Part shown: positions 18,498 through 64,000 of the stretch, piece after piece
Layout of the letters: each line of letters begins with the position of its first letter
How positions within the stretch are numbered: position 1 is the first letter of the stretch
Translations under genes and position numbers: made by a program
The notes under the pieces: generated by a model
The model's database searches: none
Seen by the model: the letters and a program-made list of their open reading frames with translations, nothing else
Told to the model about the DNA's origin: nothing
Assembly: GCA_964016885.1 (NCBI GenBank)
Contig: OZ024742.1
Span: forward strand, 19,964,001-20,028,000
Origin: Eledone cirrhosa
Lineage: Eukaryota
Reading direction: 5' to 3'
Length of the DNA stretch: 64,000 nucleotides

Positions 18498-18553
18498 ACT
18501 GCTATATATATTTCGATGATAGCCATTGAGTGGCTATGACCTCATCAGGCAGT
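18498..18553 (-). ncRNA. Minimal type I hammerhead ribozyme (Penelope pLTR type) followed by AATAAA
   Basis: Minus: ACTGC-CTGATGA-GGTCATAGCCA.CTCAA.TGGCTATCATC-GAAA-T.ATAT.A-TA-GCAGT-AAATAAA. Lies in a TA-flanked insert at 18452-18735. Confidence 0.85.
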
Positions 18554-31594: not shown

Positions 31595-32105
31595 CTCCTC
31601 AAATGAGAGATTAAGTCTAATTATGTGATTTAATGAGGTCAATATTAAGTTTTAATTAAGAAAAGTGCATGTTTGAGTAGTGGTGTGGCGGGGCGGATAG
31701 TTCAGAAGAATCATTTGAGACAGAGGTTGGTTATAATGGATGTAACAGGGAATCTGGTAGACCTGGTAGACCTGGTAGATCTGGTAGACCTGGTAGACCT
31801 GGTAGATCTGGTAGACCTGGTAGACCTGGTAGATCTGGTAGACCTGGTAGACCTGGTAGATCTGGTAGACCTGGTAGACCTGGTAGATCTGGTAGACCTG
31901 GTAGACCTGGTAGACCTGGTAGATCTGGTAGACCTGGAAGACCTGGTAGATCTGGTAGACCTGGCAGACCTGGTAGATCTGGTAGATATGGTAGACCTGG
32001 TAGACCTGGTAGATCTGGTAGATATGGTAGACCTGGTAGGAAGAGAAGAGTTGTTAGTGTGGGAGACTGTGAGGATGTGATATGTTTGATAATGTTGATA
32101 AAACA
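31595..32105 (+). repeat. Arm 1 of an inverted duplication containing a 9-bp minisatellite (CTGGTAGAY)n at about 31754-32038
   Basis: Unique flanks are the reverse complement of 37641-38088 (mirror ORFs MSSGVAGRIV... at 31673+ and 38010-). Confidence 0.9.
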
Positions 32106-37335: not shown

Positions 37336-37393
37336 GTTTCGATAATATACAACTCTTAGCAGAGTTTGCAATCATCATATATATATGTATATA

Positions 37394-37525
37394 ATGTTTA
37401 ATATAGAAGTGGCTACTACGGGACTAGAACTGTTTCGTTCAAAAGAAATCATCAGGAAATCCCTGATGATTTCTTTAGAATGAAACAGTTCTAGTGCTGT
37501 AGAAGCCATTTTCTATATTAAACAT
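37394..37525. repeat. Inverted repeat of two head-to-head hammerhead motifs; related fragment at 6873-6905
   Basis: Plus 37463-37501: CTGATGA-TTTC.TTTA.GAAT-GAAACAG.TTCTAGTG.CTGTA. Mirror copy on minus at about 37415-37455. Confidence 0.75.
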
Positions 37526-37640
37526 GATGTTTATACTCTACTAATGTATTGCGTACCTTACTTACTGTGGTTACCCCCGATTGAACTCGGGACTCACACA
37601 CATACACATATATATATAAGTATTTGTGTGTGAGGATAAT

Positions 37641-38088
37641 TGTTTTATCAACATTATCAAACATATCACATCCTCACAGTCTCCCACACTAACAACTCTT
37701 CTCTTCCTACCAGATATACCAGATATACCAGGTCTACCAGATCTACCAGGTCTACCAGATATACCAGATCTACCAGATCTACCAGGTCTACCAGATCTAC
37801 CAGATATACCAGATATACCAGATATACCAGGTCTACCAGATCTACCAGATCTACCAGGTCTACCAGAACTACCAGGTCTACCAGGTCTACCAGGTCTACC
37901 AAATCTACCAGATCTACCAGGTCTACCAGATTCCCTGTTACATCCATTATAACCAACCTCTGTCTCAAATGATTCTTCTGAACTATCCGCCCCGCCACAC
38001 CACTACTCAAACATGCACTTTTCTTAATTAAAACTTAATATTGACCTCATTAAATCACATAATTAGACTTAATCTCTCATTTGAGGAG
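37641..38088 (-). repeat. Arm 2 of the inverted duplication, with a shorter and more diverged 9-bp minisatellite
   Basis: Reverse complement of 31595-32105. Confidence 0.9.
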
Positions 38089-38122
38089 ATACACCACCAT
38101 ATGTCGCATCTCTCTTTCGCTC

Positions 38123-38227
<105 letters not shown>

Positions 38228-38374
38228 ATATATATATATTGTATTTTCTTCGGGGTTATAAGAGGCTTAGCTCTGTTTCTCGACCGTTATATCGCGTGAC
38301 TATCTCCCCCTCCGCCTTTTGGGATTCTTTCTCACGTCGTGTAGACGCGTTCTTGAGACTAGTAAAATGAGGTA

Positions 38375-38464
38375 TCCTCTTGATAAGTCGGCAGACCTCG
38401 CAAGGACTCTATGTCTTTATGATATATTGTTTTTGTTTATGCCACGAAACTACGTAGTCGAGGA
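38375..38464 (+). ncRNA. Type I hammerhead ribozyme (U3:A8 core), predicted cleavage after 38459
   Basis: TCCTC-TTGATAA-GTCGGCAGAC...GTTTATGCCAC-GAAAC-TACGTA-GTC-GAGGA. Confidence 0.85.
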
Positions 38465-38969
38465 ATTTAGGAGCAGTTTAGGTATGATACATTTTATTAC
38501 TAATTATATCTAAATATTTCTTCTCTCTTCATAATGTATTTTTAACTCTGATACTGGTTCAGTCTAGTTCAACTGAATTGGTCTGTCCCAGTCATTCATT
38601 GAGCAACATCGGTGAAGTTGGCACCCTTAACTCACAGTTGGGTGCGGATGCATTCATGTATATATGTGTGTGTCCGCATGTATCTGTGTGTTTCTAATTA
38701 TATTGTTAATAACTCCCTCTGGTCGAGCAATCTTTGAAGTGTGGGGACAGCTGGAAGGCTTCCATTACTCATACTTCTCGCCTTCTTCACCACCTCTTCT
38801 GCGGCCTCGATATAAATACCCCCTCCGCCTCCGTGGTATTTTCTTCGGGGTTATAAGAGGCTTAGCTCTGTTTCTCGACCGTTATATCGCGTGACTATCT
38901 CCCCCTCCGCCTTTTGGGATTCTTTCTCACGTCGTGTAGACGCGTTCTTGAGACTAGTAAAATGAGGTA

Positions 38970-39059
38970 TCCTCTTGATAAGTCGGCAGACCTCGCAAGG
39001 ACTCTATGTCTTTATGATATATTGTTTTTGTTTATGCCACGAAACTACGTAGTCGAGGA
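38970..39059 (+). ncRNA. Identical second hammerhead, predicted cleavage after 39054
   Basis: Exact repeat of 38375-38464 at +595. Confidence 0.85.
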
Positions 39060-39157
39060 ATTTAGGAGCAGTTTAGGTATGATACATTTTATTACTAATT
39101 ATATCTAAATGTTTCTTCTCTCTTCATAATGTATAGATATATATATATATATATATA

Positions 39158-39372
39158 TAGGAAAAGGTATGACCCCGACGGCAGAGCTCAAGCCGTTTCG
39201 ACGGCTATTTCTGAACTCAAGCCATTTCGACGGCTATTTCAGAAATAGCCGTCGAAACGGCTTGAGCTCTGCCGTCGGGGTCATACTTTTTCCTATTACC
39301 CACTCTACTACCCTAAATATTGAGTACTCTGGTGCGTTATGGTCCACCTGGTTCCTTATCACAATTCCTTTG

Positions 39373-61300: not shown

Positions 61301-64000
61301 TTGACTTTGCTCTGAGGTTGACTTTGTCCCGAGGTTGACTTTGTCCCGAGGTTGACTTTGTCCTGAGGTTGACTTTGTCCTGATGTTGACTTTGCTCTGA
61401 GGTTGACTTTGCTCTGAGGTTGACTTTGTCCTGTGGTTGACATTGTCCTGAGGTTGACTTTGCCCTGAGGTTGACTTTGTCCTGAGGTTGACTTTGTCCT
61501 GAGGTTGACTTTGCCCTGAGGTTGACTTTGCTCTGAGGCTGACTTTGCTCTGAGGTTGACTTTGTCCTGAGGTTGACTTTGTCCTGAGGTTGACTTTGTC
61601 CTGAGGTTGACTTTGTCCTGGGGTTGACTTTGTCCTGAGGTTGACTTTGTCCTGAGGTTGAATTGGCTCTGAGGTTGACTTTGCTCTGAGGTTGACTTTG
61701 CTCTGAGGTTGACTTTGTTCTGAGGTTGACTTTGCTCTGAGGTTGACTTTGCCCTGAGGTTGACTTTGTCCTGAGGTTGACTTTGCTCTGAGGTTGACTT
61801 TGCTCTGAGGTTGATTTTGTTCTGAGGTTGACTTTGCCCTGAGGTTGATTTTGCTCTGAGGTTGACTTTGTCCTGAGGTTGACTTTATCCTGAGGTTGAC
61901 TTTGTCCTGAGGTTGACTTTGCTCTGAGGTTCACTTTGCTCTGCGGTTGACTTTGCTCTGAGGTTGACTTTGTCCTGAGGTTGACTTTGTCCTGAGGTTG
62001 ACTTTGTTCTGAGGTTGACTTTGCTCTGAGGATGACTTTGTCCCGAGGTTGACTTTGTCCCGTGGTTGACTTTGTCCTGAGGTTGACTTTGCTCTGAGGT
62101 TGACTTTGCTCTGAGGTTGACTTTTCTCTGAGGTTCACTTCGTCCTGAGGCTGACTTTGCTCTGAGGTTGACTTTGTCTTGAGGTTGACTTTGTACTGAG
62201 GTTGACTTTGCTCTAAGGTTGACTTTGCTCTGAGGTTGACTTTGCTCTGAGGTTCACTTCGTCCTGAGGCTGACTTTGCTCTGAGGTTGACTTTGTCTTG
62301 AGGTTGACTTTGTACTGAGGTTGACCTTGCTCTGAGGTTGACTTTGCTCTGAGGTTGACTTTGTCCTGAGTTTGAATTTGTCCTGAGGTTGACTTTGCTC
62401 TGAGGTTGACTTTGTCCTGAGTTTGAATTTGTCCTGAGGTTGACTTTGCTCTGAGGTTGACTTTGCTCTGAGGTTGACTTTGTCCTGAGTTTGAATTTGT
62501 CCTGAGGTTGACTTTGTTCCGAGGTTGACTTGACTCTGAGGTTGACTTTGTACCGAGGTTGACTTTGTCCCGAGGTTGACTTTGTCCTGAGGTTGACTTT
62601 GATCTGAGGTTGACTTCGCTCTGTGGTTGACTTTGTCCTGAGGTTGACTTTGTCCTGAGGTTGACTTTGCTCTGACGTTTACTTTGTCCTGAGGTTGACT
62701 TTGCCCTGAGGTTGATTTTGCTCTGAGGTTGACTTTGTCCTGAGGTTGACTTTGCTCTGAGGTTGACTTTGCTCTGAGGTTGACTTTGCTCTGAGGTTCA
62801 CTTCGTCCTGAGGCTGACTTTGCTCTGAGGTTGACTTTGTCTTGAGGTTGACTTTGTACTGAGGTTGACTTTGCTCTAAGGTTGACTTTGCTCTGAGGTT
62901 GACTTTGCTCTGAGGTTCACTTCGTCCTGAGGCTGACTTTGCTCTGAGGTTGACTTTGTCTTGAGGTTGACTTTGTACTGAGGTTGACCTTGCTCTGAGG
63001 TTGACTTTGCTCTGAGGTTGACTTTGTCCTGAGTTTGAATTTGTCCTGAGGTTGACTTTGCTCTGAGGTTGACTTTGTCCTGAGTTTGAATTTGTCCTGA
63101 GGTTGACTTTGCTCTGAGCTTGACTTTGCTCTGAGGTTGACTTTGTCCCGAGGTTGACTTTGTCCCGAGGTTGACTTTGCTCTGAGGTTGACTTTGCCCT
63201 GAGGTAGACTTTGTCGTGAGGTTGACTTTGCTCTGAGGTTGACTTTGCTCTGAGGTTGACTTTGTCCTGAGTTTGAATTTGTCCTGAGGTTGACTTTGTT
63301 CCGAGGTTGACTTGACTCTGAGGTTGACTTTGTACCGAGGTTGACTTTGTCCCGAGGTTGACTTTGTCCTGAGGTTGACTTTGATCTGAGGTTGACTTCG
63401 CTCTGTGGTTGACTTTGTCCTGAGGTTGACTTTGTCCTGAGGTTGACTTTGTTCTGAGGTTGATTTTGTCCTGAGGTTGACTTTGTCCTGAGGTTGACTT
63501 TGCTCTGAGGTTCACTTTGCTCTGAGTTTGACTTTGCTCTGAGGTTGACTTTGTCCTGAGGTTGACTTTGTCCTGAGGTTGACTTGGCTCTGAGGTTGAC
63601 TTTGTCCTGAGGTTGACTTTGTCCTGAGATTGACTTTGTCCTGAGGTTGACTTTGTCCTGAGGTTGACTTTGCTCTGACGTTTACTTTGTCCTGAGGTTG
63701 ACTTTGCCCTGAGGTTGATTTTGCTCTGAGGTTGACTTTGTCCTGAGGTTGACTTTGCTCTGAGGTTGACTTTGCTCTGAGGTTGACTTTGCTCTGAGGT
63801 TCACTTCGTCCTGAGGCTGACTTTGCTCTGAGGTTGACTTTGTCCTGAGGTTGACTTTGTCCTGAGGTTGACTTTGCTCTGAGGTTGACTTTGTCCTAAG
63901 GTTGACTTTGTCCTGAGATTGACTTTGTCCTGAGGTTGACTTTGTCCTGAGGTTGACTTTGCTTTGAGGTTGACTTTGCTCTGAGGTTGACTTCGTCCTG
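46324..64000. repeat. 17-bp satellite array CTGAGGTTGACTTTG(TC|CT), about 1040 units, continuing past the window end
   Basis: Direct reading; higher-order duplications with offsets 4929, 2872 and 3535 bp from identical ORF translations. Confidence 0.99.

Follow-up and report, generated by a model that had tools for sequence, protein, structure and literature searches.

A retrozyme with U3:A8 hammerheads in the octopod Eledone cirrhosa is probably copied by rolling-circle reverse transcription

A non-coding insertion with two hammerheads

We analyzed a 64,000-nt stretch of the 3.0-Gb Eledone cirrhosa genome (contig OZ024742.1, positions 19,964,001 to 20,028,000; hereafter the window), in which a short insertion with two hammerhead ribozyme motifs lies within a (TA)n microsatellite (Table 1). 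As argued below from sequence comparisons, this insertion is probably a retrozyme lacking long terminal repeats (LTRs), whose circular and probably ADAR-edited monomer would be reverse-transcribed in a rolling-circle manner by a Penelope-like enzyme. The insertion consists of two 299-bp direct repeats, offset by 595 bp and separated by a core of 296 bp, which differ only at 38516 (A) and 39111 (G). The initial annotation had recognized that these repeats differ by about one base, and rightly so, but its lengths of 298 bp for the repeats and 297 bp for the core needed correction. Its view that the element has no coding capacity holds: just two ATG-initiated open reading frames (ORFs) of at least 50 aa overlap the insertion, one of 89 aa that starts in the microsatellite and an internal one of 76 aa. 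The unit contains 251 G+C among its 595 nt, and the window copy differs from the majority sequence of the 595-nt type by three A>G, one A>T and, in a single repeat, one G>A.

Each repeat reads TCCTC-TTGATAA-stem II-GAAA-CTACGTAG-TC-GAGGA. Both therefore contain every part of the type I hammerhead that the initial annotation had described, namely the 5-bp stem I, the UUGAUAA core, the long stem II, the palindromic stem III and the GUC site, and the two motifs are identical, complete and 595 nt apart. The 3:8 position is occupied by a U3:A8 Watson-Crick pair, and the remaining type I core features (G5, G12-A13-A14, A15.1:U16.1, H17 and G10.1:C11.1) are present. A relaxed hammerhead scan of both strands of the whole window returned three matches, two in the insertion and an unrelated one at 18503-18548. 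Cores with U3:A8 have been described as natural and as active in vitro (PMC3088659) and occur in Penelope-like elements of Schistosoma (PMC4209133); passages of PMC2920678 contain nothing on U3:A8. The initial annotation had also suggested a check with hammerhead models. Rfam gave no hammerhead match to 38300-38620 at E values up to 10, and its sole matches were microsatellite-driven microRNA. We take this miss as a limit of the models, given the variant core and the 59-nt stem II, rather than as a defining failure of the motif.

Folding predictions place the local hammerhead 1.1 kcal/mol above the minimum, with probabilities of about 0.88 for stem I and about 0.08 for stem III in the monomer. 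As the self-duplex of the stem III palindrome is predicted at -14.3 kcal/mol, the motif would suit a dimer. In the predicted fold of the 595-nt circle (z = -6.7 against 40 dinucleotide shuffles), the probability of stem I is 0, and thus the circle is predicted to be protected from cutting.

Table 1. Features of the retrozyme insertion and its flanks, in window coordinates
Feature	Position	Strand	Remarks
Whole insertion	38241..39134	+	894 bp, 1.5 laps of the 595-nt retrozyme unit; one-armed, 5′-truncated, ends at proximal site P
299-bp repeat, first copy (pseudo-LTR)	38241..38539	+	5′ end is the truncation point; 5′ ends are scattered in the family
299-bp repeat, second copy	38836..39134	+	
Hammerhead 1, type I	38375..38464	+	stem I 38375-38379/38460-38464; core UUGAUAA 38380-38386 (U3:A8)
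Hammerhead 1, remaining parts	38400-38436; 38446-38449; 38449-38458	+	stem II bulge and long hairpin; GAAA; palindromic stem III; predicted cut after 38459
Hammerhead 2	38970..39059	+	identical to hammerhead 1; predicted cut after 39054
Predicted 595-nt monomer or circle (inferred)	38460..39054	+	42% GC; circular fold -180.5 kcal/mol
Proximal end site P	39115..39134	+	80 nt past the predicted cut; used by the window copy; predicted single-stranded in the circle; continues into (TA)n
Distal end site D, TTTCTAA(T/A)TATAT	38690..38704	+	about 244 nt past the predicted cut; unused by the window copy; 80/183 family ends; mostly unpaired in the predicted circle
TATA-like hexamer	38811..38816	+	not conserved in the 591-nt subfamily
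G, with A in the 595-type majority	38413	+	in both repeats (also 39008)
Two more A>G differences from the 595-type majority	38757, 38801	+	each covered once
Left flank	38109..38240	.	(CT)n, then (TA)n target microsatellite
Right flank	39135..39159	.	(TA)n target microsatellite; target-site duplication not readable

The insertion belongs to a large and young family

A genome search with the unit yielded 1,321 candidates, and the full-length matches among the 38 that were scored are 98-100% identical. Exact patterns counted genome-wide matched the hammerhead core 7,119 times across all subfamilies, the 591-nt subfamily, which is the commonest, 3,627 times and the 595-nt type 1,285 times. The reversed controls gave 0, so that the hammerhead family is not a product of chance. 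The canonical CTGANGAG version joined to the same stem III gave no match. A search with a motif that lies outside the ribozyme turned up a relative with 76-79% identity; one of its arms has unaltered stems I and III and an unaltered core, and its stem II hairpin drifts. Units within one insertion differ by 0.14-0.27%, which indicates that the family is young, and the largest tandem arrays reach about 14 units. These data support the annotation of the element as a young, multi-copy retrozyme; with thousands of copies and a core kept in the 76-79% relative, the local tandem duplication that the annotation had named as its alternative does not apply.

Two observations in sequencing data were set aside. 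The apparent dominance of a rare haplotype in run X5 was dropped, since that haplotype is the commonest subfamily. Single contigs of 620 and 621 nt at a depth of about 8 in runs of two other organisms (B and C) raised the possibility of retrozyme transfer; carry-over is likelier, as another repeat of the same genome occurs in those runs at a depth of 4-12, and a head-to-tail contig cannot tell a circle from an array.

Insertions end at two internal sites

We mapped 118 insertions and dropped one DNA duplicate, leaving 117. Set A comprised 35 loci from the best matches, chosen for their likeness to the window copy, and 43 insertions of the 591-nt subfamily, taken consecutively along contig 1, made up set B. 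Set C comprised 40 loci of the 595-nt type, that is 30 regions with at least two pattern matches and 10 single matches from the first 100 listed, and was fetched after the predictions had been written down and before analysis.

Nearly all insertions lie in (TA)n. Among the 183 3′ ends of the 117 insertions, 175 fall at two internal sites, 95 at the proximal site P and 80 at the distal site D, and none within 10 nt of the predicted cut. Other TATAT-like sites of the unit are unused as ends, and P and D are predicted to be mostly unpaired; apparent ends at unit position 50 proved to be alignment artefacts. The 5′ ends are scattered, with 5/121 within 10 nt of the cut against 4.3 expected. Sixty-six insertions consist of two head-to-head arms, five of them unclassifiable, and 60 of the 61 classifiable ones combine P with D (p = 3e-17 against independent choice). 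Arms extend up to 7.5 laps, and 67/115 cross at least two cut sites. Classic twin priming with adjacent segments was considered and does not fit, because the 5′ ends do not cluster at P or D.

The window copy is a one-armed insertion of 1.5 laps that ends at P and has a random 5′ break, and its LTRs are therefore pseudo-LTRs. The initial annotation had spoken of an LTR-like unit; the scattered 5′ ends and a repeat length that varies from copy to copy refute true LTRs. It had also pointed to a TATA-like box ahead of the second repeat, which reads TATGAA in 38/38 covered insertions of the largest subfamily and, not being conserved, was rejected as a promoter.

Near-identical units within arrays would also be expected of a DNA-level repeat, such as a satellite, a local tandem duplication or a DNA transposon, homogenized by gene conversion or by the assembly, and some whole insertions have indeed been duplicated as DNA. 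Fixed 3′ ends, scattered 5′ ends, inverted arms and strand-asymmetric changes are the marks of retrotransposition, however, and 242 single-unit differences are resolved, so that the units were not collapsed. We regard this explanation as largely refuted and very improbable. The family shows internal 3′ ends at fixed sites with a one-sided tail, 5′-truncated copies, arms both in tandem and inverted, and a microsatellite target, which agrees with the annotation's proposal of Penelope-type mobilization in trans. As a separate observation, the DNA duplicates (L146/L147 and L161) are whole two-armed insertions copied a few kb apart.

A probable single template for each insertion

Variants that segregate in the family occur in all covered units of an insertion in 122/129 cases in set A and 307/316 in set B. 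Changes private to one insertion behave likewise: they span both arms of L031, in 13/13 units, and seven private changes of L100 are each found in 7-8 of its 7-8 units. Such uniformity is explained by a bottleneck of one unit followed by repeated copying, whereas a concatemer template predicts mosaics. The simplest one-unit template is a circle, as has been proposed for animal retrozymes (PMC7229834).

A linear cleaved monomer would account for the one-haplotype pattern equally well if the RT (reverse transcriptase), on reaching the 5′ end of the monomer, jumped back to its 3′ end again and again, without a covalent circle. End-to-end jumping is known for R2-type enzymes. Scars, stops or mixed haplotypes would nevertheless be expected after repeated jumps. 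In set A, unit positions 219-220, the cut junction, carry no recorded indel or substitution, and the 5′ truncations described above are not enriched there. We therefore consider the linear template improbable.

An A>G footprint in the arrays

If one molecule is copied in rolling-circle fashion, every change on it should recur in each lap. We compared insertion-wide with single-unit variants. Among distinct variants, A>G accounts for 10/22 insertion-wide against 11/101 single-unit changes in set A and for 19/34 against 2/54 in set B, and the excess was repeated in set C (17/55 against 7/93, with the duplicate insertion still counted). Restricted to private insertion-wide variants, the comparison gives 17/65 against 20/242 (p = 3e-4). 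The 32 A>G sites outnumber the 15 T>C sites (p = 2.5e-5), and 133 insertion-site cases at these 32 sites are G in all units while six are mixed. No such excess of A>G is seen among single-unit variants (20 A>G against 41 T>C, p = 0.51). Recurrence was judged by the overlap of subfamilies and by four-gamete counts, and each of the five variants found recurrently in the two subfamilies is A>G.

In sets B and C, the 5′ neighbor of A>G sites is depleted of G (2/31, p = 0.018), which fits all ADARs (PMC5625713), and the 3′ neighbor is enriched in G (11/31, p = 0.005). L120 carries four rare changes, all A>G and present in both laps, three of them within one hairpin. The terminal repeat of the candidate partner element introduced below served as a control: it is 37% A and none of its 17 shared variants is A>G, so that the pathway as such does not produce this bias.

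If the circular template is accepted, ADAR editing is the probable source of these marks on the sequence pattern, and several results pull the other way. The 3′ G excess fits vertebrate ADAR2 better, as octopus hyper-editing has a weak 3′ G preference (PMC5625713). Private A>G changes exceed T>C by just 17:13 (p = 0.03), and A>G sites are not enriched in paired regions (26/32 against 77/102). Four-gamete conflicts are modestly higher at A/G sites (p = 0.03) and occur at other sites too, so that template switching or recombination could cause part of the A>G recurrence. On the same circular template, A>G could instead arise from strand-biased DNA mutation at heavily transcribed source loci, from selection for G-U-tolerant changes or from recombination between subfamilies. 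C>T changes would be equally G-U-tolerant but are not enriched: distinct insertion-wide C>T sites number 3, 3 and 8 in sets A, B and C, against 10, 19 and 17 for A>G. The depleted 5′ G, the clustered changes of L120 and the absence of A>G from the partner's repeat likewise speak against these sources, which we think less probable than editing.

Proposed mechanism

In the model that we favor, and hold to be probable, read-through transcripts would self-cleave, probably as dimers through the palindromic stem III, and the monomer would be ligated into a 595-nt circle that refolds with stem I blocked. ADAR would edit some A to I on this highly paired circular RNA. The enzyme, probably a dimer, would nick (TA)n and use one or both target ends to prime synthesis at P and D of a single RNA molecule, and rolling-circle synthesis would then build arms of up to 7.5 laps that are joined by microhomology. 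A Penelope-like protein with two internal start sites bounding a tail, and with a predicted dimer, has been described (PMC11167929).

A number of points count against this model. The purified Penelope-like protein used mainly uncleaved RNA in vitro and did not need the hammerhead (PMC11167929), and 8/9 Xenopus retrozyme dimers showed no cleavage (bioRxiv 10.64898/2026.07.22.740005). All three of our sets were selected for the presence of the hammerhead region. Among 17 hammerheads compared, 92.7% of pair cells are paired and double-sided changes occur in 2/29 pairs; covariation thus lends mild, thin support, as these rows were mostly picked by the core pattern. In 2/117 insertions a core-breaking change occupies all covered units (A8U in L017 and G10.1C in L039), which cleavage in a dimer by a neighbor's core could allow, and which a dispensable ribozyme fits too. 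The core holds 4/95 insertion-wide against 19/242 single-unit variants, which is no significant depletion (p = 0.34), and 16 shared variants are partly fixed.

The same Penelope-type machinery might then copy long uncleaved multi-unit transcripts of source arrays, with a weak or incidental hammerhead and no circle. The in vitro substrate, the hammerhead mutants that left insertion unaffected (PMC11167929), the two core-broken insertions, ends that ignore the cut site and the existence of homogeneous source arrays of up to about 14 units would all be expected. A new change would hit one unit of a concatemer, however, and mosaic daughters should follow, whereas the A>G cases are overwhelmingly uniform. 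Single-unit variants lack the A>G excess, private changes fixed in both arms of L031 need a one-unit bottleneck before amplification, and the core is intact in the 76-79% relative, which was found without the core pattern. Copying of uncleaved transcripts appears unlikely on balance, if slightly less so than the jumping linear monomer.

A candidate partner element

A search of the genome for GIY-YIG domains gave 10,595 candidates, 150 of which were scored. One of them, L084 (G000:C1:145868500-145878000), has a 4,979-nt unit between two terminal repeats and a frame that encodes RT and GIY-YIG. The linker of Neptune elements is defined as CX2-5CxxC (PMC8557442); in L084 it is CX4CxxC, and GIY-YIG is C-terminal to RT, as in that group. 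Each L084 terminal repeat contains a minimal U3:A8 hammerhead motif. Copies of the element are young in appearance, as 67/67 were scored at 98-100% protein identity, most of them without stops, and the closest named relative of the protein, with 75% identity over 63% of the query, is from Octopus bimaculoides, which fits an octopod host. The element also targets (TA)n and ends 82 or 150 nt past its own predicted cut. In 26 loci, the proximal and distal ends are combined in 13/14 classifiable two-armed insertions (as read from the tabulated ends). Its proximal offset of 82 nt matches the 80 nt of retrozyme site P within 2 nt, and its distal end, TTTCTAATATATA, resembles the majority sequence of retrozyme site D, TTTCTAAATATAT.

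Against this pairing, BLASTN (word 7, E 0.05) of the unit with 35 GIY-YIG loci of the 10,595 candidates gave simple-repeat matches alone, and the genome contains several other Penelope-like families. With no alignable homology and these other families present, the pairing is a lead only; judged by its sequence features, an L084-type young Neptune-like element is the likeliest partner of the retrozyme, and we lean towards it.

Further features of these elements were noted. The L084 unit has a short upstream frame and the RT-endonuclease frame in another phase, and a 775-aa open frame in most copies points to a possible frameshift or intron. The two terminal repeats of one insertion of the element have private variants in common. 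Short end fragments of the Neptune-like element lie near retrozyme insertions at five loci (L008, L024, L027, L049 and L055), both in (TA)n. Another Penelope-like family (L087, L088, L091 and L098) has short 3′ regions and different ends; RT and GIY-YIG were seen in L087, L088 and L091, and this family is a rival candidate partner.

Other repeats in the window

The hammerhead at 18503-18548 on the minus strand is of type I, with a canonical C3:G8 core and a palindromic stem III (ATATATAT), and lies in a different repeat that recurs at other loci of the genome. L093 and L099 contain related motifs, as do L089 and L097, where the loop is TGCGCA; these are probably further retrozyme families. Minimal hammerhead cores (CTGATGA...GAAAC on each strand) stand head to head at 37425-37493, as expected of an inverted Penelope-type remnant, and 37381-37600 has 39 BLAST matches in other sampled loci. 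A near-perfect palindrome with an internal 29-bp duplication (39161-39290) adjoins the right (TA)n of the insertion; the surrounding 39159-39370 is a common repeat with 72 BLAST matches in other sampled loci. The same 9-bp minisatellite occupies 37707-37931 and 31754-32039 in opposite orientations, with 25 and 32 copies, and a 17-bp satellite of more than 1,040 copies extends from 46323 past the window end at 64000.

Discussion

At the sequence level, the window family shows the features of metazoan non-LTR retrozymes that we examined: a hammerhead in each short non-coding unit, GC below 50%, dispersed tandem arrays and no true LTRs. The retrozymes of coral, mussel and axolotl (PMC7229834; bioRxiv 10.64898/2026.07.22.740005) likewise consist of non-coding tandem units with a type I hammerhead each and GC below 50%, in thousands of dispersed copies, and share a highly self-paired predicted RNA and co-resident Penelope-like elements. 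The unit of 595 or 591 nt is longer than the 170-400 nt of the invertebrate circles described and falls inside the 51-972 bp of Li, Clavereau and Pollet 2026. The Eledone family differs in its U3:A8 core, its long stem II and a stem I that is predicted to be blocked in the circle. It has no detectable homology to a Penelope-like terminal repeat among the 35 GIY-YIG loci compared, whereas 24/57 Xenopus families have homology to transposable elements (bioRxiv 10.64898/2026.07.22.740005). Rolling-circle reverse transcription of metazoan retrozymes is itself a hypothesis in these two reports.

Plant LTR retrozymes also have two hammerheads in direct repeats around a non-coding core and a similar circle size (PMC7229834, PMC6765202, bioRxiv 10.64898/2026.07.22.740005). 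They contain type III hammerheads, true LTRs, a primer-binding site and polypurine tract and 4-bp duplications, and are thought to use Gypsy enzymes. The window repeat is a by-product of 1.5 laps and its hammerhead is of type I, so that its topology and its pseudo-LTR place the family outside the plant group on sequence features.

Several traits are shared with Penelope-like elements of the Neptune clade and with Poseidon PAc (Craig et al. 2021, PMC8557442; Frangieh et al. 2024, PMC11167929): 5′ truncation, pseudo-LTRs made of partial tandems, a 5′ arm in inverted orientation, a tail, present at one end, that is delimited by two internal start sites, a microsatellite bias and a hammerhead that lies upstream of those sites. 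The retrozyme lacks an ORF, has a tail of about 164 nt rather than 30-40 nt and forms arms of up to 7.5 units; its ends show TA microhomology with the target, whereas the PAc start site is not homologous to the cut DNA (PMC11167929). Replacement of C3:G8 by U3:A8 was first seen in a Cercyon Penelope-like element and is known from about 1,300 motifs in Schistosoma (Perreault et al. 2011, PMC3088659; Cervera and de la Pena 2014, PMC4209133). Unlike those variants, the window motif would form a full three-helix hammerhead whose palindromic stem III has 10 nt, and it belongs to a non-coding family that counts about 7,100 such motifs.

The class of metazoan retrozymes is already known; for the A>G footprint our searches returned no precedent. 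Judged by titles and abstracts, full-text searches that did not reach subscription papers or the supplements of PMC7229834 and of the preprint listed no report of cephalopod retrozymes, two-site retrozyme ends or editing marks in retrozyme arrays, and the words hammerhead and ribozyme are absent from the accessible text of the Octopus vulgaris repeat annotation (PMC13282606).

Combining these lines, we tentatively propose that each array records a single RNA molecule in the genome. An enzyme of Penelope type, acting as a dimer, would start simultaneously at both fixed sites of one ADAR-edited 595-nt circle and run for up to about 14 laps. A-to-I edits of the germ line would thereby enter the genome and drive how the family evolves. 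Its partner would be the co-resident U3:A8 Neptune-like element, which the retrozyme would mimic in start-site spacing and motif, not by descent. As a whole, this scenario is possible rather than probable in our judgment.

How animal retrozymes spread, and whether circles are their transposition intermediates, has been a matter of proposal rather than demonstration (PMC7229834; bioRxiv 10.64898/2026.07.22.740005). The Eledone family offers a large natural test set that favors a template of one molecule and many laps, points to a young candidate enzyme whose RT-endonuclease frames are open and gives exact predicted start sites, +80 and +244. Should the A>G marks stem from ADAR, RNA editing would feed heritable change into an octopod genome by way of a circular RNA, and the hot sites could be checked in RNA.
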